From positions 1 to 64,000 of the IMG/VR virus record IMGVR_UViG_2558309062_000001: 64,000 bases of DNA; one strand, 5' to 3'. The notes beneath the pieces were generated by a model, which was given only the letters and a program-made list of their open reading frames with translations, was not told where the DNA came from and ran no database searches. Positions 2,439 to 59,354 of this stretch are shown piece after piece; position 1 is the stretch's first letter; each line of letters starts with the position of its first letter. This DNA is from a virus (taxonomy: Duplodnaviria; Caudoviricetes). A program made the translations under genes and the position numbers.

Positions 2439-2756
2439 TCAGGCCGTGGCCGTGGCGATGGTCTTCTCGAAACGAGCTGCCAGTTCGGCATTTACCTCGG
2501 CTTTAGCGAGGCTGTCGGCGGTGCCTTTGGCGCGGTGCAGGGTCTCGTATGCTCGCAGCTGTGCTGCAGCGTCGATCAGGTCATCCAGCAGCAGAGGGGA
2601 GGCCGCGATCAACTTTGCGTTTGCCATCTGATGCATTCCCCCATCTACCTGGCAGATGAAGTACTCGCCGTCACCAACGACGATGCTGAGTTTTCCGGGA
2701 TCCGCTTCAAGGCCTTTTTCGTCAATTACCCAAGGGCCTGGTTTGTGTTTCTTCAT
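2439..2756 (-). CDS. Hypothetical phage protein (KHKPGPW...ANAKLIAASP family)
   Basis: Common phage motif; GGAG SD after a hairpin; duplicated in prophage 2. Confidence 0.75.
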   Translation of the reverse strand: MKKHKPGPWVIDEKGLEADPGKLSIVVGDGEYFICQVDGGMHQMANAKLIAASPLLLDDLIDAAAQLRAYETLHRAKGTADSLAKAEVNAELAARFEKTIATATA

Positions 2757-7806: not shown

Positions 7807-8190
7807 TCAGGCGTGGAGCTCGAAGGCCTCGGCCTTGCGAACGATTCGAACTTGGGCGGTTCGCCGCTCCGGCGCGCGGCGGTCGCGGCGCATCGGGTCA
7901 GCATCGTCGATCGCCGCATGCATGGCGATGAGGCCGGCGAGGGCGATACACAGCGGTCTGATGATCTGGCAGCGCATGGCTTCGGCGACCATCGCAGCGC
8001 GCCTGGCAACCTTGAGCTTCAGCATTGCGTCACCGATGCGCTTCTCGACACCGCTTTCGCTGATGCCGAAGTGCCTGGCGATTTCCTTGGTGGTGAAGCC
8101 CTGGGCAACATCCAGAAGGCATTGAAGTTCGCGAGGCGCCAGGCCTCGGCCGAGATGGCCTATCCATGCGCCGACGGTGATCGTGTCCAT
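7807..8190 (-). CDS. LuxR-type HTH transcriptional regulator
   Basis: LAPRELQCLLDVAQGFTTKEIARHFGISESGV. Confidence 0.88.
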   Translation of the reverse strand: MDTITVGAWIGHLGRGLAPRELQCLLDVAQGFTTKEIARHFGISESGVEKRIGDAMLKLKVARRAAMVAEAMRCQIIRPLCIALAGLIAMHAAIDDADPMRRDRRAPERRTAQVRIVRKAEAFELHA

Positions 8191-8346
8191 GATGTGTTCT
8201 CGGGGTGGATCGGGGAGGCAGTTGCAAGCGTTGGGTTTGCAACTGGGCATCAACACCGAAGAGCGTCCTGGTGAACTGTTTCCCCCGATTGATGGGGTAG
8301 GGCGCTCTGCGGTGGTGATGAGCCCCGGCAGGGCCGGGGCGGTGAG

Positions 8347-8550
8347 TCACTGCTGGGTGCGCAGCTCGTTGCGGGGCACCCATCCGCCGGCAGTCTTCAC
8401 CAGACAGCCGACATATGGGGCGAATCTGGTCTGTCGCTCAGTCTGGTAGCCGTACCATTGGCAGGTGCCCCAGTTGACTGCGGCAGCCACGACCAGCCCG
8501 GCCAGGGCGACAGTTGCAACTGCCGCCAGACCGAAGTGCTTGCGTTTCAC
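8347..8550 (-). CDS. Small membrane-anchored protein
   Basis: N-terminal hydrophobic helix, two Cys; GTGA coupling to the terB-like gene. Confidence 0.65.
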   Translation of the reverse strand: MKRKHFGLAAVATVALAGLVVAAAVNWGTCQWYGYQTERQTRFAPYVGCLVKTAGGWVPRNELRTQQ

Positions 8551-8984
8551 ACCTCGATCCCGAAGTCTTTCAGGCGCAGGCCGAGCTGGTTGCCGATTTC
8601 GGCCAGGACGCGCAGCTCTTCAGGGCTGATGTTCCCGTCGCCTTCCGCGACGGTGATCATGTTGACGAACACCTCCTCAGCGTCGAGCGGGTTGTTCTTG
8701 ATGTCCGCGATTTCGCGCATGATGTTCATGCGGCCCAGGCGGAAGCCTGCCTGCAGCTGTTCGGTGAACAGGTTCACCGTGTTGGTGATCTCTTGGCCGA
8801 AGTGCTCGAGGTTCTTGTTCGCCCGGATCTGGATGTCGATCTGGGCTGCTTCGTTCTTGCTGATCTCGCCATCCGCCGCCGCGACCAGCAAGCAGCCGCC
8901 GACGATGGCCTGCATCAGGTCGCGATTCTCCAGCTTCTTGACTGCGCGCTTGGCGCCGAACAGCTTCTTTCCGATACCGAACAT
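8547..8984 (-). CDS. TerB-family protein, first gene of the pL operon
   Basis: LLVAAADGEISKNE and ITVAEGDGNISPEELRVL repeats. Confidence 0.85.
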   Translation of the reverse strand: MFGIGKKLFGAKRAVKKLENRDLMQAIVGGCLLVAAADGEISKNEAAQIDIQIRANKNLEHFGQEITNTVNLFTEQLQAGFRLGRMNIMREIADIKNNPLDAEEVFVNMITVAEGDGNISPEELRVLAEIGNQLGLRLKDFGIEV

Positions 8985-8998
8985 GGGTGTTTCCTCTG

Positions 8999-9228
8999 GT
9001 TGATTTCCCAGCAGCCACTCGTGGGAATGGCTGCGAGTGAAATCTGCCGCGACCCGCAACTGGCGTCGGTTGCACGGCAATCTTCTGGTTGTTCCTCCAG
9101 CCGCGGCACTCACCCGCTGGATAACTGCATTGGCGCTTTACGCTGCACGCCCGGGTCAGTTGCCAACCCTCTGGACCGTTTAGGCCTGTCCATCGCTGCC
9201 TTGCTGCTGGCCGGTGTCGATCCGGCAT
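8999..9228 (-). ncRNA. Structured pL leader RNA of prophage 1 (chain of hairpins)
   Basis: Non-coding; several stems share loops and compensatory changes with the pL leader of prophage 2. Confidence 0.55.
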
Positions 9229-9234
9229 GAGCAA

Positions 9235-9276
9235 AATATAAGTACGCTTATCTTTTGTGTCAATAAGCGTGCTTAT
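9235..9276 (-). promoter_or_regulatory. pL promoter with two CI operators (OL)
   Basis: TTGACA (9263-9258), 17 bp, TATATT (9240-9235); ATAAG-N4-CTTAT at 9238..9251 and 9263..9276. Confidence 0.85.
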
Positions 9277-9295
9277 AATTTTTCTGATAGGCATG

Positions 9296-9318
9296 AAAAA
9301 GCCCGCTCGAGGCGGGCC
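9296..9318 (-). terminator. Intrinsic terminator after cI
   Basis: GCCCGC stem followed by a T5 tract on the minus strand. Confidence 0.75.
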
Positions 9319-9336: not shown

Positions 9337-10080
9337 TTACTTTCGGCGAGGCGATCGGCGCACGGTTGACCACCAGAAGACACGGCCGAGCATATGGACC
9401 TCTTCTTGCCACTGCTCTGCAGTCATTACTTCGTCCGGGTACTCGTCGCCGTTTTCGCTGCTGATACGCACGGCTCCTTGGGGCAGGCGGTACAGGTACT
9501 TAGTGCGGAGCATGCCCCCGTGGTTGAAGGCATAAATCTCACCGTCGATGATCGACGTGTCGCTCATGTCAAAGCCAATAGCGGCGCCATCCAGGATCAA
9601 GCGTTCCATGCTTCTTCCCTTTACTCTGGCTACTGCAGCGCACTTCTTGTCTACGCCAGCAGCACGAAGGGTGGCGCAGCTGAACCGTAGCTTGCGTCCA
9701 GCAACCTCAACTACTTCCGTCATTCCGTTGCCACCTGCGAACTCTACTTCGGCGAAGTAGGGCACTTCACAATCGTCTTCATCAAGCGGATCGCCATCGT
9801 CCCAGGCAGACAGCTCGCCAAGCAGTTCAAGCTCATGAGCGATTGCTTGGTTGGCTGGTTGTGCCTGGTCCTGATCCATTGCCCCTACGCCCTCGGACAG
9901 CCACAGAGGGCTTACCCGGCATATCTGGGCAATCTTCGTCAAATGGACGCTCCGGAGGTTCTTTCCCGTCTCCAGTTGAGAGATGACGGGCTGCTCCACA
10001 CCAACCTTTTCGGCAAGTGAGCGCTGTGTCAGCTGCGCGTGCTTGCGAGCTGCCTTGATTCGGTCTGCGAGGGTATCCAT
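9337..10080 (-). CDS. cI: CI repressor (HTH plus S24 autopeptidase), probably from a leaderless mRNA
   Basis: LTQRSLAEKVGVEQPVISQLETG; AG cleavage site; GRSM serine; TAGATT -10 seven nt before ATG. Confidence 0.93.
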   Translation of the reverse strand: MDTLADRIKAARKHAQLTQRSLAEKVGVEQPVISQLETGKNLRSVHLTKIAQICRVSPLWLSEGVGAMDQDQAQPANQAIAHELELLGELSAWDDGDPLDEDDCEVPYFAEVEFAGGNGMTEVVEVAGRKLRFSCATLRAAGVDKKCAAVARVKGRSMERLILDGAAIGFDMSDTSIIDGEIYAFNHGGMLRTKYLYRLPQGAVRISSENGDEYPDEVMTAEQWQEEVHMLGRVFWWSTVRRSPRRK

Positions 10081-10087
10081 GCCCGGG

Positions 10088-10153
10088 AATCTATAAGGCA
10101 ACTTATAGGCTTGCAAATAAGGCTCCTTATTCTTAGAGTATAAGCACGCTTAT
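10088..10153. promoter_or_regulatory. OR region: three operators, pR and pRM
   Basis: ATAAG-N4-CTTAT at 10093, 10117 and 10140; TTGCAA 10111..10116 with -10 TAGAGT (+) and TAGATT (-). Confidence 0.85.
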
Positions 10154-27329: not shown

Positions 27330-28018
27330 ATGAAGCTCAACATCGACAGCCTGCGCCAAGCGGGTGCCTTCACCGGCCGCCCCGTTGAGAAGGAGATCAG
27401 CTGGCGCCAAGGCGATGACACCCTGACGGCGACGGTGTTCGTTCGCCCGCTGGGCTACCAGACCGCTGTAAGCGACGTGCTCGCCGCTGGCGGCAAGCAG
27501 GACAGCATCGCCGGGCGCATCGCCGCCGCCATTTGCGATGAAGAAGGCAACCCGGTGTTCACCGCCATGGATATCACGCATGGCCCGCTTGATCCCGCCG
27601 AACTGGCGAAGGACCGCGACAGCACCAAGCGCCTGGGCGCCCTGGACGGCAATCTCACTGTTGCCCTACTCACGGCTATCCATGAGGTGAACAATCTGGG
27701 AAAGATGTCGAACTCAGCGAGCTCGACGAACTCTGGCACGAGCTCGTCCTCGCCGGCGTCGGCGGGCGCACGATCGCGCAAGCCCAAGAAGCCCTGAGCC
27801 TGCGCGAATTTCACTCTTGGGTGAAATACAGGAATCGCCGTGGCTCTCTCCACGTAGGTATGCGCGTGGAGCGGGCGGCGGCGCTCCTGGCGTCGATTCT
27901 GGCCAACCAAGGGCGCAACGCCAAGCTGAGGCCGGAGCCGTTCACCCCGGCTGATTTCTGCCCTCATGACGATCGCCAGGCGCCAAGTCTTGAGCAGGCC
28001 ATGGAGGAATGGTCCTGA
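27330..28018 (+). CDS. Tail assembly chaperone G (27330..27797) and -1 frameshift product G-T (to 28018)
   Basis: GGGAAAG at 27698..27704; -1 frame open as DELWHELVLAGVGGRTIAQAQE...YRNRRGSL. Confidence 0.88.
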
Positions 28019-28084
28019 CTATGGCTCTTTGGCATGAGGCTGCCGGATGTTAGATTGCCCAATTTGCATGGAAGGCGACTAGCC

Positions 28085-28438
28085 ATGGCAGCTGATGTGA
28101 ACACCTACATGGGAATCGGCACGGCGGTAACCGCGGCACTGTTCTATTTTCCTCCAACGATAGTTGCGTGGATCAGGCAGCATCCGAACCGCGTTTCGAT
28201 TTTTCTTCTCAACCTGCTGCTTGGATGGACGGTGATTGGGTGGTTCGTTGCCCTTATATGGTCGGCGTCTGCAATTCGTCGATACCCTCTACCTGACACC
28301 GTCAAAGCGCCGGAGCGGCCAGCGTCGGAGAACGATAGCTATCGGCGACTGGAGCAGTTGGCCGACCTGAAAGAGCGCGGCCATCTAACCCAAGAAGAAT
28401 TCGACGAGGAAAAGCAGAGAGTTCTAAAGGGTAGGTAG
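28085..28438 (+). CDS. Superinfection immunity protein (T4 Imm-like) with C-terminal SHOCT-like domain
   Basis: YFPPTIVA..R.H.N...IFLLNLLLGWTVIGWFVALIWS; LEQLADLKERGHLTQEEFDEEKQRVL. Confidence 0.85.
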   Translation: MAADVNTYMGIGTAVTAALFYFPPTIVAWIRQHPNRVSIFLLNLLLGWTVIGWFVALIWSASAIRRYPLPDTVKAPERPASENDSYRRLEQLADLKERGHLTQEEFDEEKQRVLKGR

Positions 28439-28451
28439 CCAGACAAGCAAC

Positions 28452-28477
28452 GAGCCCGCTTTCGCGGGCTTTTTTTC
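28452..28477 (+). terminator. Terminator of the imm moron
   Basis: AGCCCGC-TTTC-GCGGGCT followed by a T-run. Confidence 0.8.
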
Positions 28478-28491
28478 GCCTGGAGGAAAGC

Positions 28492-31047
28492 ATGGCGAGC
28501 CGTTCTCTTGGCACATTGACTCTCGACTTGATCGCGAGGATTGGCGGCTTTACCGGCCCTATGGACAAGGCCGGTCGCGAAACTCAGAAGCAGATGGCGG
28601 AAATCCGAAAGCATGCCGAGCGCCTGGGTACGGCTTTGGGTGCATCTTTCGCTGCTATCCCAGCTGTCGTGGCCGGCCTGGTCACCAGCTCGGCTGCGGC
28701 CGCCAAAGAGATATCAAATCTGTCCGCTCTCGCTGGTCTCAGCACAACTGAGTTCCAGAGATACGCCGCCGCTGCAGCTTCGGTTGGCGTTCAGCAGGAC
28801 AAGCTTTCGGACATTTTCAAGGACACCAACGACAAAGTCGGAGACTTTCTTGCCACTGGCGGGGGTGAGCTGAAGAATTTCTTCGAGACGGTGGCCCCTA
28901 AGGTTGGCGTTACTGCGGAGCAGTTCCGTAAGCTGAACAGCGCGGATGCGCTACAGCTGTACGTCAGCAGTCTACAAAAAGCGAACGTCAGCCAGGCGCA
29001 GATGACCTTCTTCATGGAGGCAATTGCTGACGAGGCTACGGCTTTGGTTCCGCTCTTGGCCGATGGGGGGAAAAAATTCAAAGAGCTTGGTGATGCCGCG
29101 CAGTCTGCCGGCATGATCATGGACGAGCAGACGATCGGTGCCGCTCAACAGTTTAGCACTGAGCTGACTGTTATTAGCCAGTATGCCGGTTCGGCTAAGA
29201 CCGCTCTGGCTGCTGAGTTCATGCCCGTGTTGGCACAGCTGGCAAAAGATCTGGCTGACACGTCCAGAGAGGCTGGCGGACTGAGGAATGTGGTGCATGA
29301 GTTCGCCGAAGACTTAATCGAGGTCACGGCAATCACTGCGAGCGTTGCCGATGGCACAAGCCGAGCTTTCACCATCGTTGCCGGGACAATCGCCAGTGGG
29401 TTTGCCACGACGATGGCGTATCTGCAAAGTATTGGTGCAACAGCCAATACTCTGCTTGGCGCCGTCACGTTTGGCGATATGTCGAAGGATTTCAAGGAAA
29501 ACGCGGCGAAGCTGACAGCTGACGCAATTGACAACTCCAGAACTGCGGGCCTGATCGCTGCAGAACTGGCTGATGAGTTCAAGAAACCGTGGTCTGGCGA
29601 CGTAATCCGTGAGTATGTGAAGGAGGCGCGGAAGGCGGCATCCGACCTGCCCAAGATCGTGCCGACCGGCAATGGAAACGCTGGAATTCTCGGTGAAACC
29701 GATGCACAGAAGGCCGCTGCCAAGGCGGCCGAGGCCGCAGCCAAGAAGCTGAATCAAGTTTTCGAGACGACGGAGCAGGGCTATGAGCGTCAAATAGCCC
29801 TGATCAACACTGAGGTCGACAAGCGCAAGGACGCCACTGAGGTGGCGAAGCTTCAGTTCGAGCTGGAATCCGGGAAGCTGCACGACCTGAGCGCCCAGCA
29901 GCAGGACCGGCTGAAAGGCCTGGCCGCCGAGCTCGACCAGCTTAAGCAGATCAAGCAGCAGAACGAGGATGCCAAGAAGCTTGCCGCCTTCAGGGCCAAC
30001 GTGGGCGAGGACTACCAGACCGCACGCAGCGGGTTCGACCAGGAGTTGGCCGGCGCCGGTCGCGGCGAAAAGTACAAGGAGCGGCTGAAAGAGCGCCTGG
30101 CGATCGAGGAAGACTTCAATCGCCAGCAGCGCGAACTGGTGCTGCAGCGCAATAGCGGCGACATCAGTCAGGAGCTGTACGACCAGGAAACGCAGGTGCT
30201 GAGCGATGCTCTTGCCCAACACCTGGACCTACAGAATGACTACTACAGCCGGCTCGATGAGGCGCAAGCCAACTGGATGGACGGCGTCACCAGCGCCTGG
30301 GAGAACTTCGCCGACGCTGCGACCAACTACTCGGCCATGGCCGCCGAGGGAACCACCTCGGTTCTGGGCAGTGCGAAGAGTGAGCTGAGCACGTTCCTCT
30401 CCGATGTGGCCACCGGCTCCGCAGATGCGGGGGATGCGCTGATGGACATGATCACCGGCTTCGGCAAGGCCTTCGTGGGCGCGCTTGCAGACATGGCGGC
30501 TCAATGGCTGGTGTACCAGGCTGTGCAACTGCTGGTGGGCAAGACGACGCAATCGAGCGCGGGCATTGCCATGGTGGCCAATGCTCAGGCGACGGCGTTC
30601 CAGGCTAGCCTTGCCGCCTTCGCGTCGACTGCAGCCATCCCGATAGTCGGTCCAGCAGCAGCGCCTGCAGCAGCTGCAGCGGCGGCCGCAGCGACAGCTC
30701 CTATGGTCGCTGGCGTGGCCTCCGCCGCGCTGACGGGGATGGCTCACGGCGGTTATGAAAACATCCCCCGAGAAGGCACCTGGCTGCTCGACGGTGGTGA
30801 GCGGGTGCTCGCTCCCAACCAGAACCGCGACCTGACCCAGTACCTGCGCAATGCGAACGATGCTGGCGGTGGTCTCGGGGGCGGAGGCATCACGATCAAC
30901 GCACCGATCACCGTTCAGGCCCAGCCGGGTGTGAGCGACGAAGCGGCGCGCCGTCAGGGTGAAATGATGGGGCAAGCGTTCAGGCAAACCATCCGCGAAG
31001 TAGTAAACGAAGAGTTCGCCCAGGGCGGATCGATGTGGAGGCGGTAA
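28492..31047 (+). CDS. Tail tape measure protein
   Basis: 851 aa, Ala-rich helical; MASRSLGTLTLDL; C-terminal AHGG..NIPREGTWLLDGGERV. Confidence 0.93.
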   Translation: MASRSLGTLTLDLIARIGGFTGPMDKAGRETQKQMAEIRKHAERLGTALGASFAAIPAVVAGLVTSSAAAAKEISNLSALAGLSTTEFQRYAAAAASVGVQQDKLSDIFKDTNDKVGDFLATGGGELKNFFETVAPKVGVTAEQFRKLNSADALQLYVSSLQKANVSQAQMTFFMEAIADEATALVPLLADGGKKFKELGDAAQSAGMIMDEQTIGAAQQFSTELTVISQYAGSAKTALAAEFMPVLAQLAKDLADTSREAGGLRNVVHEFAEDLIEVTAITASVADGTSRAFTIVAGTIASGFATTMAYLQSIGATANTLLGAVTFGDMSKDFKENAAKLTADAIDNSRTAGLIAAELADEFKKPWSGDVIREYVKEARKAASDLPKIVPTGNGNAGILGETDAQKAAAKAAEAAAKKLNQVFETTEQGYERQIALINTEVDKRKDATEVAKLQFELESGKLHDLSAQQQDRLKGLAAELDQLKQIKQQNEDAKKLAAFRANVGEDYQTARSGFDQELAGAGRGEKYKERLKERLAIEEDFNRQQRELVLQRNSGDISQELYDQETQVLSDALAQHLDLQNDYYSRLDEAQANWMDGVTSAWENFADAATNYSAMAAEGTTSVLGSAKSELSTFLSDVATGSADAGDALMDMITGFGKAFVGALADMAAQWLVYQAVQLLVGKTTQSSAGIAMVANAQATAFQASLAAFASTAAIPIVGPAAAPAAAAAAAAATAPMVAGVASAALTGMAHGGYENIPREGTWLLDGGERVLAPNQNRDLTQYLRNANDAGGGLGGGGITINAPITVQAQPGVSDEAARRQGEMMGQAFRQTIREVVNEEFAQGGSMWRR

Positions 31048-55509: not shown

Positions 55510-56090
55510 GGTTGATTTCCCGGATGCCACTCGCTGAATGGCACCTGGTGAAATCCCGGCCTCGCTACTGGCGACAGGCCGGGGTGTTGCGTCAGCGGTG
55601 ATCCCTCTACGCTAGGGTGGCGCCGCGTCTGCCGCTGCTGATTGCAGCTCTGCGGTTCGTCGTGGTTGCGGGCTTCGAGCTTCCTCCTCATGGCGTCAAG
55701 CAGCATCTGTCCGCCATGGATCGCAGGTCCTTACAACATGCACGCTACAGCTCTGAATGCCCTGACTGAGTGGGGCAGGGTGCATGAGGTCCGGCACCCC
55801 TCAATGCCGAAGCTCGGGGCGCTAATTCAAATCGGTGTTTCTGGGCTCCGTTACTCGCCACGGTGGCCTGGGCGAATCCTTTTTCGGGAACCCTGTGGGT
55901 TCAACAGTCAGCCGCGCCTATGCCGCTAACTCTCGCTTTTGGTGCTTTACGCTGCACACCTTGGGGGAGGCGCCCCATCTCAAAGAATCCGCTTGAAGGT
56001 CATGGCTCCTTGATCGCTGCCATGTCCGGGCATTTGCCTGCGGGTGTCGGCCGGTGAGGGCCTCCCGAGGGGCTGTGTAGCGCCTCGATG
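55510..56090 (-). ncRNA. Structured pL leader RNA of prophage 2
   Basis: About 580 nt without a convincing ORF; motifs covary with 8999..9228. Confidence 0.55.
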
Positions 56091-56095
56091 GATGT

Positions 56096-56137
56096 AGTTA
56101 ACCATCGGTATATATTTGTCGTCAATACCGATGGTTA
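56096..56137 (-). promoter_or_regulatory. pL with two operators
   Basis: TAACCATCGGTA 56099..56110 and TACCGATGGTTA 56126..56137; TTGACG -35 at 56125-56120. Confidence 0.75.
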
Positions 56138-56174
56138 ATTTATTTTTCGAGGGCTTGCGCTATGATCTGCAATA

Positions 56175-56190
56175 CTGGATGTATGTACAG
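56175..56190. promoter_or_regulatory. LexA (SOS) box
   Basis: TA-CTGGATGTATGTACAG; TATGAT -10 just upstream. Confidence 0.75.
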
Positions 56191-56206
56191 TTATTACGGA
56201 GGTGTC

Positions 56207-56524
56207 ATGGCCAAGCAAAACAAGACGGCGCCAAAGCAGCAGAGCCAGAAGATGACTGACCTAGAGCGCCTGGGGCTCAGGGTTTCCAACATGATTAATC
56301 ACCCGATCGCGCAGGAGCAGAGGTGGGTCGTCATTCATCGCCTGGACACTGACGGGGATGCGGAGTGGGATGAGATCATGGGGATTCTGTCGGAAACGGA
56401 TGGCCTTGAGATGACCTTTCTCGACGATGGCGGGGTGAAGATCGAGTGGGAGATGCAGAGCGAGGAGGATCGAGAGGCGCCGGCCAGTGAGCTGGAAGCG
56501 CTGGAGGATGAGCCGCCTTTCTGA
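56207..56524 (+). CDS. DUF1654-like acidic protein
   Basis: LERLGLRVS.MIN.P.AQ..R...IHRLDTD.D..W. Confidence 0.75.
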   Translation: MAKQNKTAPKQQSQKMTDLERLGLRVSNMINHPIAQEQRWVVIHRLDTDGDAEWDEIMGILSETDGLEMTFLDDGGVKIEWEMQSEEDREAPASELEALEDEPPF

Positions 56525-58395: not shown

Positions 58396-59277
58396 CTAGG
58401 CCTTCCTGGCGTTCCAGATAAGCAGGACTTTCGCATGGATCGTGACATCCTCGATCCTGGCCTGCTGATCCTTGTGCTTCTCGTTGTCAGAGATCAGCCA
58501 GAAATGATCTTCGTCGAAGAACTGGAGGCGCTTGATGTACAGATGGCCGTGCCAAGTCAGGACGTAGATCCCATCGCCCACGAACTCATTCACGCCGCGA
58601 TCGACGATCAGCGGGTCTTTGTCGTTGATCGTGCCTTCCATGCTCTGGCCCCAGCCGAAGATCATGGCCAGGGCTGACTGGGAAGTGAACGTGACGCCTT
58701 TCTCGTGAAGAACCGACTCCTTCACGATCACGTTGCGCATGACCTCGGTGTAGTCAGGCGGCACCTGGCCGTGCCCCATAGAGGCGCGGATATCGTACTG
58801 AGGGATGAAGATCTCGTCCTTCTTGACCTTGAGGCCTGAGAAGTCCGCAGAGACGACATTGCTCGGGCGCTCATCCACCAGGGAATCGGCCACCGCAGCC
58901 GCTATTCTCTGCTGGGCATCCTCGTCCAGCTTCTTCCCCGCGTGCTGACGCAGCATAGCCATGACCTTCTCCGCCGCCCCGGCCTTGTGATCCGACTCGG
59001 CTGAGGGCGCCATGCGCATCCCGCGTATCTCCTCGGCAAGCCTAGGGCTGAATTTCTCCACTGGCACGTCTAGCAGGCGCGCGAGCACCGCCGCGAACTT
59101 GGCGTTCAACGGGTTGATGCCCTTGAAGTAGAGGTTCACAGCTGCCGGCGTCATTCCCGCCTCATCCGCGATCTTCTTCTGGCTCAGCTTCAGCTCGTTC
59201 TTCCGCGCCAGGAATAAAGCGTGCGCCGCTTCGCATTCAGCCAATCGGTCAGGGGGGAGGATTCGTTTCTTAGTCAT
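58396..59277 (-). CDS. cI: CI repressor (HTH plus S24), probably leaderless
   Basis: LSQKKIADEAGMTPAAVNLYFKG; ASMGHG; GQSM; IKRLQ; TATGTT six nt before ATG. Confidence 0.93.
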   Translation of the reverse strand: MTKKRILPPDRLAECEAAHALFLARKNELKLSQKKIADEAGMTPAAVNLYFKGINPLNAKFAAVLARLLDVPVEKFSPRLAEEIRGMRMAPSAESDHKAGAAEKVMAMLRQHAGKKLDEDAQQRIAAAVADSLVDERPSNVVSADFSGLKVKKDEIFIPQYDIRASMGHGQVPPDYTEVMRNVIVKESVLHEKGVTFTSQSALAMIFGWGQSMEGTINDKDPLIVDRGVNEFVGDGIYVLTWHGHLYIKRLQFFDEDHFWLISDNEKHKDQQARIEDVTIHAKVLLIWNARKA

Positions 59278-59283
59278 GGCGCG

Positions 59284-59354
59284 AACATATACCAACGGTT
59301 AAAGAAAGGGCAGAAACCATCGGTATGGACAAATAATCAACCGATGGTTAATAT
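59284..59354. promoter_or_regulatory. OR region: three operators, pR and pRM
   Basis: ACC-N3-GGT palindromes at 59290, 59314 and 59339; TGGACA, 17 bp, TAATAT. Confidence 0.8.

Follow-up and report, generated by a model that had tools for sequence, protein, structure and literature searches.

The window analyzed here, 64,000 nt long (positions 1 to 64,000 of IMGVR_UViG_2558309062_000001), is part of a provirus record of 96,572 bases and holds two lambdoid immunity regions, termed phage 1 and phage 2. Each region encodes a repressor and has a pL-type promoter that reads into a long leader ahead of an early-left operon. The features are as follows.

10116..9337, minus strand: repressor gene of phage 1 (HTH_3 and Peptidase_S24 domains)
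9318..9300, minus strand: terminator after the phage 1 repressor gene
9233-9251 and 9263-9281: arms of a 19-nt inverted repeat in phage 1, overlapping the promoter
9235..9263, minus strand: pL-type promoter of phage 1, TTGACA-17-TATATT (11/12 consensus positions)
8547-8984, minus strand: first gene of the phage 1 early-left operon (TerB domain, PF05099; phrog_632, 'tellurite resistance')
59295..58396, minus strand: repressor gene of phage 2 (same domain type, unrelated sequence)
56098..56138, minus strand: pL-type control region of phage 2, with TTGACG (56125-56120) inside an inverted repeat

The 19-nt inverted repeat is likely the phage 1 operator. Judging from the position of the −10 element, transcription of phage 1 would start at about 9228, giving a leader of about 245 untranslated nucleotides up to ATG 8984 of the TerB-like gene. 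The early-left operon of phage 1 also encodes a LuxR/GerE-type regulator (7807-8256, minus strand; PF00196; phrog_3282, 'sigma factor'), and a LuxR/GerE-like protein is found among the first genes in 24/156 related loci.

In phage 2, a perfect inverted repeat of 14 nt (TTAACCATCGGTAT/ATACCGATGGTTAA) flanks TTGACG; a consensus promoter scan did not call this pL-type promoter. The leader extends for about 600 untranslated nucleotides to ATG 55491, and the conserved core described below lies about 415 nt before this first start codon. Several small genes, moron-like in character, separate the phage 2 repressor gene from the pL-type control region; a DUF1654 gene (56162-56524, plus strand) between these genes and the promoter points away from the latter. 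The two phages are heteroimmune: no significant similarity links their repressors (E 0.06), and their operator repeats are unlike.

A shared double-pseudoknot fold in both leaders

Downstream of the pL-type promoter in each phage, at the 5′ end of the transcript as the preliminary description had proposed, lies an RNA domain with a shared fold. Its parts are an H-type pseudoknot (helices S1 and S2), hairpin P3, a second pseudoknot (PK2), hairpin P4, and a bulged hairpin, P5. All of the elements listed are on the minus strand.

Phage 1
9210..9226: hairpin P0, GCCGG-AUCGACA-CCGGC, boxB-like
9201..9096: RNA domain (shared fold)
9172..9201: H-type pseudoknot (covariation)
9201-9198 with 9185-9182: S1, AGGC/GCCU
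9197-9193: loop L1, AGCGA
9192-9186 with 9178-9172: S2, 6/6 pairs changed on both sides
9153..9169: hairpin P3, 9169-9166 with 9156-9153
9132..9151: hairpin P4, GGCGU-GCAGCGUAAA-GCGCC, with an invariant 10-nt loop
9123..9127: 3′ strand of PK2, CAGUU, with AACUG of the P3 loop
9096..9121: hairpin P5, 9 pairs, 8/9 changed on both sides

Phage 2
56024..55907: RNA domain (shared fold)
55980..56024: pseudoknot (model match and alignment)
56024-56019 (CAUGGC) with 56006-56001 (GCCAUG): S1, longer than in phage 1
56018-56014: L1, AGCGA
56013-56007 (UCAAGGA) with 55986-55980 (UCUUUGA): S2 (covariation)
55977-55962: P3, its loop containing GCCUC
55960-55941: P4, its loop identical to that of phage 1
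55934-55932: GAG strand of PK2, only 3 pairs, with CUC of the P3 loop
55930-55907: P5, with the bulged CGCGG motif as in phage 1

The strings quoted in the preliminary description recur exactly on the minus strand, as AGGC-AGCGA-UGGAC-AG-GCCU-AAACG-GUCCA-GA-hairpin-GGCG-UGCAGCGUAAAG-CGCC in phage 1 (9201..9132) and as CAUGGC-AGCGA-UCAAGGA-GCCAUG...UCUUUGA-GA-hairpin-GGUG-UGCAGCGUAAAG-CACC in phage 2 (56024..55941). The extent it gave, 9129-9228, needs correction: the element is there, but its true end is at 9096 (55907 in phage 2), P5 having been overlooked, and the start at 9228 approximates the inferred transcription start and takes in the separate upstream hairpin P0 (9226..9210). The phage 1 transcript opens with P0, which has a 5-bp GC stem and a 7-nt loop (AUCGACA).

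The P3 loop of phage 1 consists of 9 invariant nucleotides (UGGCAACUG), of which 9161-9157 enter PK2. P5 of phage 1 has a variable tip and carries two conserved bulged G residues in its 3′ strand, within the CGCGG motif. The unpaired motifs GCAGCGA and GCAGCGU, both in the core, are nearly identical. In phage 2, loop 3 of the pseudoknot holds a 14-nt insert, and a nested local hairpin (UUCAAG/CUUUGA) is possible as a rival to the first pseudoknot.

We tested a hand-drawn structure on an alignment (A2) of 44 representatives that are at most 95% alike. In A2, 98.6% of cells pair, and 16/33 pairs changed on both sides, compared with only 1-5 pairs in controls with the partners slid by 1-3 columns; none of 500 shuffles reached any of five measures. 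RNAalifold independently returned the same nested helices, with 14/28 pairs compensatory. A second alignment (A3, 53 sequences) consists of A2 plus nine divergent relatives, namely the phage 2 copy, seven genome loci, and the F116-like phage PA8; here 97.8% of cells pair and 23/33 pairs changed on both sides, with 7-11 in the slid controls. The compensatory stem changes first noticed between the two window copies are thus borne out on 44 and on 53 related sequences. A covariance model (R1), restricted to the nested helices and built without phage 2, found the phage 2 copy in the window with 58.4 bits (E 5e-13), the next best match scoring 13.5 bits, and the two-motif pattern has 0.00 expected occurrences in the shuffled window. 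A chance origin of the shared element is excluded.

Since S1 and PK2 were left out of the covariance model, the alignment was not fitted to either helix. S1 is unchanged among close relatives, which are therefore uninformative on this helix; with the divergent relatives included, 2/4 of its pairs changed on both sides, pair 7-20 being C-G in 48 sequences and U-A in 3. Taken with the fully exchanged S2, the comparison supports two interlocking helices that both covary, that is, the H-type pseudoknot first suggested by the crossing GGC/GCC pairing. PK2 joins the P3 loop to the strand between P4 and P5, and 4/5 of its pairs changed on both sides. Its common type is AACUG/CAGUU and its divergent type CUC(N)/(N)GAG; single compensations inside the common type are seen at two loci (L005 and L022). 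Exchanges within P4 are between U-A and C-G at alignment pair 57-72 and between U.G and C-G at 59-70. The single-sequence folding energy of the core is unremarkable (z −0.13, −1.49, −0.08, and −1.81), so that support for the fold comes from sequence comparison and not from thermodynamics.

G.U pairs are common, for example in 18/44 sequences at one P5 pair, and would be A.C mismatches on the other strand, which fixes the RNA strand as minus in the window. A site acting at the DNA level was rejected because the G.U pairs are strand-specific. A coding reading of the core was also rejected, since indels of 1, 2, and 11-12 nt occur and substitutions track the helices; the tip of P5 differs in length by 11-12 nt among relatives. 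The unpaired motifs AGCGA, GCAGCGUAAA, and UGGCAACUG do not vary among heteroimmune phages or among tailocins of many species.

No named family had been recognized in this RNA, and database searches agree. Rfam 15 gave 0 matches in the whole window at gathering thresholds. At E<=10, the phage 1 leader gave only weak matches to unrelated families, namely BsrF, Trp leader, Yfr1, and isrK over the cI terminator and promoter, and Vax2os1_2, which reaches 6.2 bits against a cut-off of 55; the phage 2 leader gave none at this threshold. Ribozymes include small pseudoknotted domains with invariant unpaired bases, and leaders this long and untranslated would be exposed to Rho, so we considered that the core could cleave itself as a ribozyme or act simply as a structural barrier to Rho. 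We regard this as very unlikely: no ribozyme family matched at E<=10, and loop sequences that are invariant across species are not needed for a mere structural block.

A literature search found no description of the leader RNA, and searches with the motif letters returned unrelated primers only; subscription journals and supplements were outside its scope, and a prior description is possible. In a study of the P. protegens tailocin, the 516 bp between prtR1 and hol served as promoter reporter, and the words UTR, leader, terminator, and secondary structure are absent from the main text of that study (PMC12066065). According to the accessible text of PMC10305613, the replication cluster of PseuP_222 and PseuP_224 carries at its far end a gene for an antitermination protein, and no nut site is mentioned there. 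The boxA reported for Pseudomonas in PMC5725501 precedes ribH-nusB and lies outside prophages. The words 'Pseudomonas', 'phage', and 'pyocin' are absent from the main texts of two motif-discovery papers (PMC11109978 and PMC8632094). The phage records examined carry no RNA annotation on the element. In the PseuP_224 record, a 41-aa hypothetical CDS is annotated across the RNA (L001 3033-3158) and is probably spurious.

A large family that opens prophage and tailocin operons

A blastn search with the phage 1 leader matched 9 phage records, among them the P. protegens phage PseuP_224, four P. syringae phages, and DVM-2008, a prophage/tailocin region of P. fluorescens Q8r1-96 in which the leader lies between prtR and the next gene downstream. 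The exact pattern GGCAGCGAT-N38-68-GCAGCGTAAAG occurs in at least 120 contigs in each of two sets, IMG/VR and genomes. Among the 246 pattern matches listed, 230 also have the P4 stem; the 14 without it and 4 judged by eye to be chance were dropped, and those dropped chance matches that are known by name are non-Pseudomonas records. With R1, the element was found in 89/151 genomes of a genus sample around a P. migulae genome, at 1-3 copies each (88/150 without the unpublished genome G103), in 10/151 genomes of a family sample, and in 3/17 genomes of another genus. In the provirus record R1 found two copies, one behind each pL-type promoter; each phage thus has a single copy, with none on the pR side. 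The structured leader RNA at the early-left transcript start of both window prophages is real and widespread, and apparently undescribed.

A divergent form occurs in 28 records of F116-like P. aeruginosa phages, of which 23 are unannotated under the match, 3 are wholly unannotated, and 2 have the match under an annotated CDS. The divergent copy of the F116-like phage PA8 (L006 2958-3071) is without annotation.

A cI/LexA/PrtR-like gene lies within 3 kb upstream of the element in 148/173 loci, on the same strand in 147 of them, with a median spacing to the core of 216 nt. The first gene downstream varies among loci (TerB-like, holin, Com-like, and unknowns). A holin gene is present within 3 kb downstream in 100/146 loci and within 350 nt of the core in 74/146, and 53 of the 100 holin loci have no Com-like or Orf4-like ORF ahead of the holin. 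Loci with a nearby holin are tailocin-type clusters, and the rest are prophage early-left operons with varied genes. The leader RNA family is large, and throughout Pseudomonas it stands at the head of prophage and tailocin operons. Among the 156 downstream regions of 3 kb, no ORF family occurs in every one, the widest being present in 103; the clustering is contaminated by out-of-frame ORFs of GC-rich DNA and was therefore used only for the absence of a universal ORF family.

A canonical sense-strand intrinsic terminator was predicted within 3 kb downstream in 48/146 loci. Terminator sites number 58 in sense and 45 in antisense, which is no enrichment, and many are bidirectional; only individual cases were therefore used. 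One of these is a strong terminator (AGCCCGCCGACGCGGGC followed by a T-run) at about 2704-2727 (minus strand) of L136, a contig labeled P. putida, in a 70-nt gap between the tailocin baseplate genes V and W. The same terminator stem, with a varying loop, is seen at about the same distance in L135, L142, L148, L156, L197, and L207. No canonical intrinsic terminator was predicted downstream of either window element.

A second structured module lies closer to the first gene in both window leaders, as listed here.

9003..9080, minus strand: second leader module of phage 1 (fold z −3.84)
9080-9044, minus strand: hairpin H1 of this module
9043-9003, minus strand: long hairpin AUUUCAC...GGGAAAU, just before the ribosome-binding site and ATG 8984
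55515..55584, minus strand: second leader module of phage 2 (fold z −3.68), before ATG 55491
55584-55555 and 55554-55515, minus strand: H1 and long hairpin of this module

Its consensus is a hairpin around GACGCCAGU(A/U)GCG followed by a long hairpin, AUUUCAC-covarying stem-GGGAAAUCAAC, and a regular expression found it in 15 unique loci, at distances of 92-802 nt downstream from the core.

In 47/146 loci an ORF for a Com-like zinc-finger protein (phrog_6417, 'translational regulator') starts about 10 nt after P5, and the Com-like protein of fluorescens-type tailocin clusters (e.g. L002 2025-2333) is a candidate RNA-binding partner. The leader might be a post-transcriptional platform, acting not on elongation but by binding a protein and setting the translation, RNase processing, or stability of the 5′ end of the operon; candidates for the protein are a host regulator and phage or tailocin products, among them the Com-like zinc finger. 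GCAGCGA and GCAGCGU look like paired sites for one RNA-binding protein, the end of P5 adjoins GGAGG or GGA, and in 15 loci the second module places another long hairpin immediately ahead of the first gene's ribosome-binding site, where lambda has the RNase III hairpin of its N leader. We nevertheless consider a platform unlikely. Loci vary widely in their first gene, no one protein occurs in all of them, and the distance of the phage 2 core from its first start codon makes direct control of one ribosome-binding site unlikely; boxA, described below, would be left unexplained.

The core also has traits typical of aptamers, in that it is compact and pseudoknotted, has conserved junction and loop nucleotides and variable helix tips, and lies in a 5′ leader. 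It might then be a riboswitch-like sensor that binds a small molecule or ion and gates lytic or tailocin genes once the repressor is gone, a reading to which we give a low probability. There is no consistent expression platform: no U-run follows P5, and the Shine–Dalgarno-like GGAGG beside it is not conserved. The downstream genes are many kinds of phage and tailocin genes with no metabolic theme, no Rfam riboswitch matched, and the boxA association points instead to the elongation machinery.

boxA association and a proposed role in antitermination

The 8-mer GCTCTTTA occurs exactly in 121/207 unique 100-nt stretches upstream of the core, 20-55 nt before it, and within one mismatch in 142/207, so that about a third of relatives lack it. 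Two control sets of 207 stretches each had 0 exact occurrences, and 1 and 3 within one mismatch. The boxA core GCUCUUUA followed by ACAA occurs six times in a Pseudomonas genome and, in the two places checked, lies about 150 nt upstream of the 16S gene; its presence at the 16S leader identifies the 8-mer that precedes the leader core as the host rrn boxA. Neither window leader has a boxA (CGCUCUUUA-like) within one mismatch on the minus strand.

A hairpin with a GC stem stands beside boxA, with loops such as UCGACAAA, AUCGACA, and AUCACCA. It follows boxA in phage-type leaders and precedes it in tailocin-type leaders. Such boxB-like hairpins were counted within 75 nt in 140/207 leaders, a count that stands without a control set. 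The P0-type loops resemble, by eye only, the boxB loops UGACAAA and CGACAAC of P22, which lie in CGCTCTTTAAC...GCGC-TGACAAA-GCGC (nutL) and CGCTCTTTA...CCGC-CGACAAC-GCGG (nutR). Phage 1 has hairpin P0 and no boxA, and in phage 2 neither is recognizable.

These neighbors, together with the genomic position, suggest that the element is a nut- or put-like cis-acting antitermination leader that works through host factors. This is the explanation we favor, tentatively and at a little short of an even chance. The core would be transcribed first, from the repressor-controlled early-left promoter in Pseudomonas lambdoid prophages and from a PrtR-controlled promoter in tailocin clusters. The emerging RNA would fold into the compact double-pseudoknot domain (S1/S2, P3 with PK2, P4, and P5), which would remain with the elongating RNA polymerase and confer resistance to termination over the long operon. 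Because boxA and a boxB-like hairpin stand beside the domain in most relatives, host NusB/NusE, NusA/NusG, and RNA polymerase are its likely partners, and the domain may substitute for N or bind a further factor yet to be recognized. The analysis establishes how the RNA folds, how conserved it is, on which strand and where in the genome it lies, and that it occurs together with boxA; binding of polymerase or Nus factors, and read-through of both Rho-dependent and intrinsic terminators, we infer.

Several observations argue for antitermination. The element opens a long repressor-controlled operon, like lambda nutL and HK022 putL; the majority of relatives have an exact boxA upstream as well as boxB-like hairpins; and unpaired motifs that are invariant across heteroimmune phages and tailocins fit a conserved host partner. 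No protein is common to all loci, more than half of the holin loci are without an intervening Com-like or Orf4-like ORF, and the ORFs searched in the two window operons include none recognized as N-like. Strong intrinsic terminators, such as that of L136, lie inside some operons downstream of the element.

Other observations weigh against it. The window copies lack boxA, as do about a third of relatives, and there is one copy per phage and no pR-side copy, in contrast to the paired nutL/nutR and putL/putR sites. No terminator was predicted for the window operons, sense terminators are not enriched, and the element bears no resemblance to put. The Com-like ORF that follows P5 in 47/146 loci offers another partner, and an N-like protein may have gone unrecognized. 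N proteins are small and poorly conserved. The preliminary description had recognized no N gene, and Pfam and PHROGs searches of the first 9-10 ORFs per operon likewise found none that is N-like, nor did they among 20 window-operon and 8 related-phage ORFs in all, although a small divergent N could escape such searches.

Nut with N (lambda and P22) and the put RNA of HK022 both make RNA polymerase resistant to termination. The nut sites of lambda and P22, like the leader RNA, are RNA signals that act in cis and lie where the pL transcript begins; most relatives have a boxA, with the core of the host rrn boxA, beside a GC-stem hairpin with loops that look like those of P22 boxB. It differs from nut in its extra double-pseudoknot domain of about 110 nt, which has no nut counterpart, in having one site per phage and no recognized N-like gene, and in the lack of boxA in the window copies. 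Tailocin clusters differ further from nut phages in that there is often no gene between leader and holin.

The put RNA, like the leader RNA, is structured and encoded immediately after pL in a lambdoid phage that has no recognized N. According to PMC9378689, put needs no phage protein to act in cis on RNA polymerase and persists for at least 10 kb; it is about 70 nt long, with two stem-loops, a triplex, and no pseudoknot, and ten sequences of it are aligned in that paper. As described there it comes in two copies (putL and putR) and has no boxA. The leader RNA, in contrast, is present once per phage and comprises a double pseudoknot and three hairpins. Run with filters off on the HK022 pL-pR region (27500-30500), R1 gave 2.4 bits at best. 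EAR of the Bacillus eps operons is a leader RNA of long operons that is thought to promote read-through; the window leaders matched no EAR-type antitermination RNA of Rfam at E<=10.

For the rrn antitermination signal, host factors (NusA/B/E/G, SuhB, and S4) suffice, and its boxC is far smaller than the leader core. Genome-wide in one Pseudomonas genome, R1 found the tailocin/prophage copy only and none at the rrn operons. The abstract of PMC10250234 names the rrn leader signal as boxB-boxA-boxC; tailocin-type leaders have the same order of hairpin, boxA, and downstream conserved element, and the same boxA core.

A search of RNA runs with a P. putida-labeled tailocin locus, distinct from the window, listed 20 runs from 7 studies, each with only 7-15% of the sequence words of that locus. 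In four RNA-library runs the assembled contigs cover the element, and in two a single contig passes through it (X5 and X6); such contigs carry no starts, ends, strand, or level, and DNA carry-over is possible. Breaks of contigs inside the core are attributable to a second copy in that organism. These contigs also bear on the idea that the leader yields a stable small RNA with targets in trans, such as host mRNAs or superinfecting phages. A highly structured core would resist nucleases, it would be the first RNA from a strong promoter, and several genomes have 2-3 copies. We judge this very improbable, since no terminator or recognizable processing site follows P5 and contigs X5 and X6 continue through the element into the flanks, RNA ends not being visible in contigs; moreover, with the promoter repressed in lysogens, the small RNA would be absent when immunity is needed.

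If the antitermination reading holds, the element might be a third phage processive antiterminator beside nut/N and put, a self-folding double-pseudoknot RNA that replaces N and makes use of host boxA/Nus loading. We regard this more specific proposal as less likely than not. To our knowledge, the PrtN activator of P. aeruginosa has no counterpart in tailocin clusters of the fluorescens, putida, and syringae groups, and such an antiterminator would be the missing positive control after cleavage of PrtR or cI, allowing polymerase past internal terminators in Pseudomonas tailocin and prophage operons and giving a testable account of how tailocins of these groups are switched on after loss of PrtR. 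A widespread new RNA architecture would then join a very short list of processive antitermination signals, and it would provide a compact part for the control of long operons in Pseudomonas. Whatever the mechanism, the family is large, strongly structured, and apparently unannotated in well-studied loci.

The phage 2 leader has, between the core and the second module (about 55900-55590, minus strand), a further conserved stretch of about 300 nt that is apparently noncoding and has no Rfam match. In UFJF_PfDIW6 an opposite-strand CDS is annotated over this stretch, and no ORF of that length is open in the window. The stretch recurs in 11 other loci at 75-87% identity, with frame-breaking indels and no ORF shared among them.
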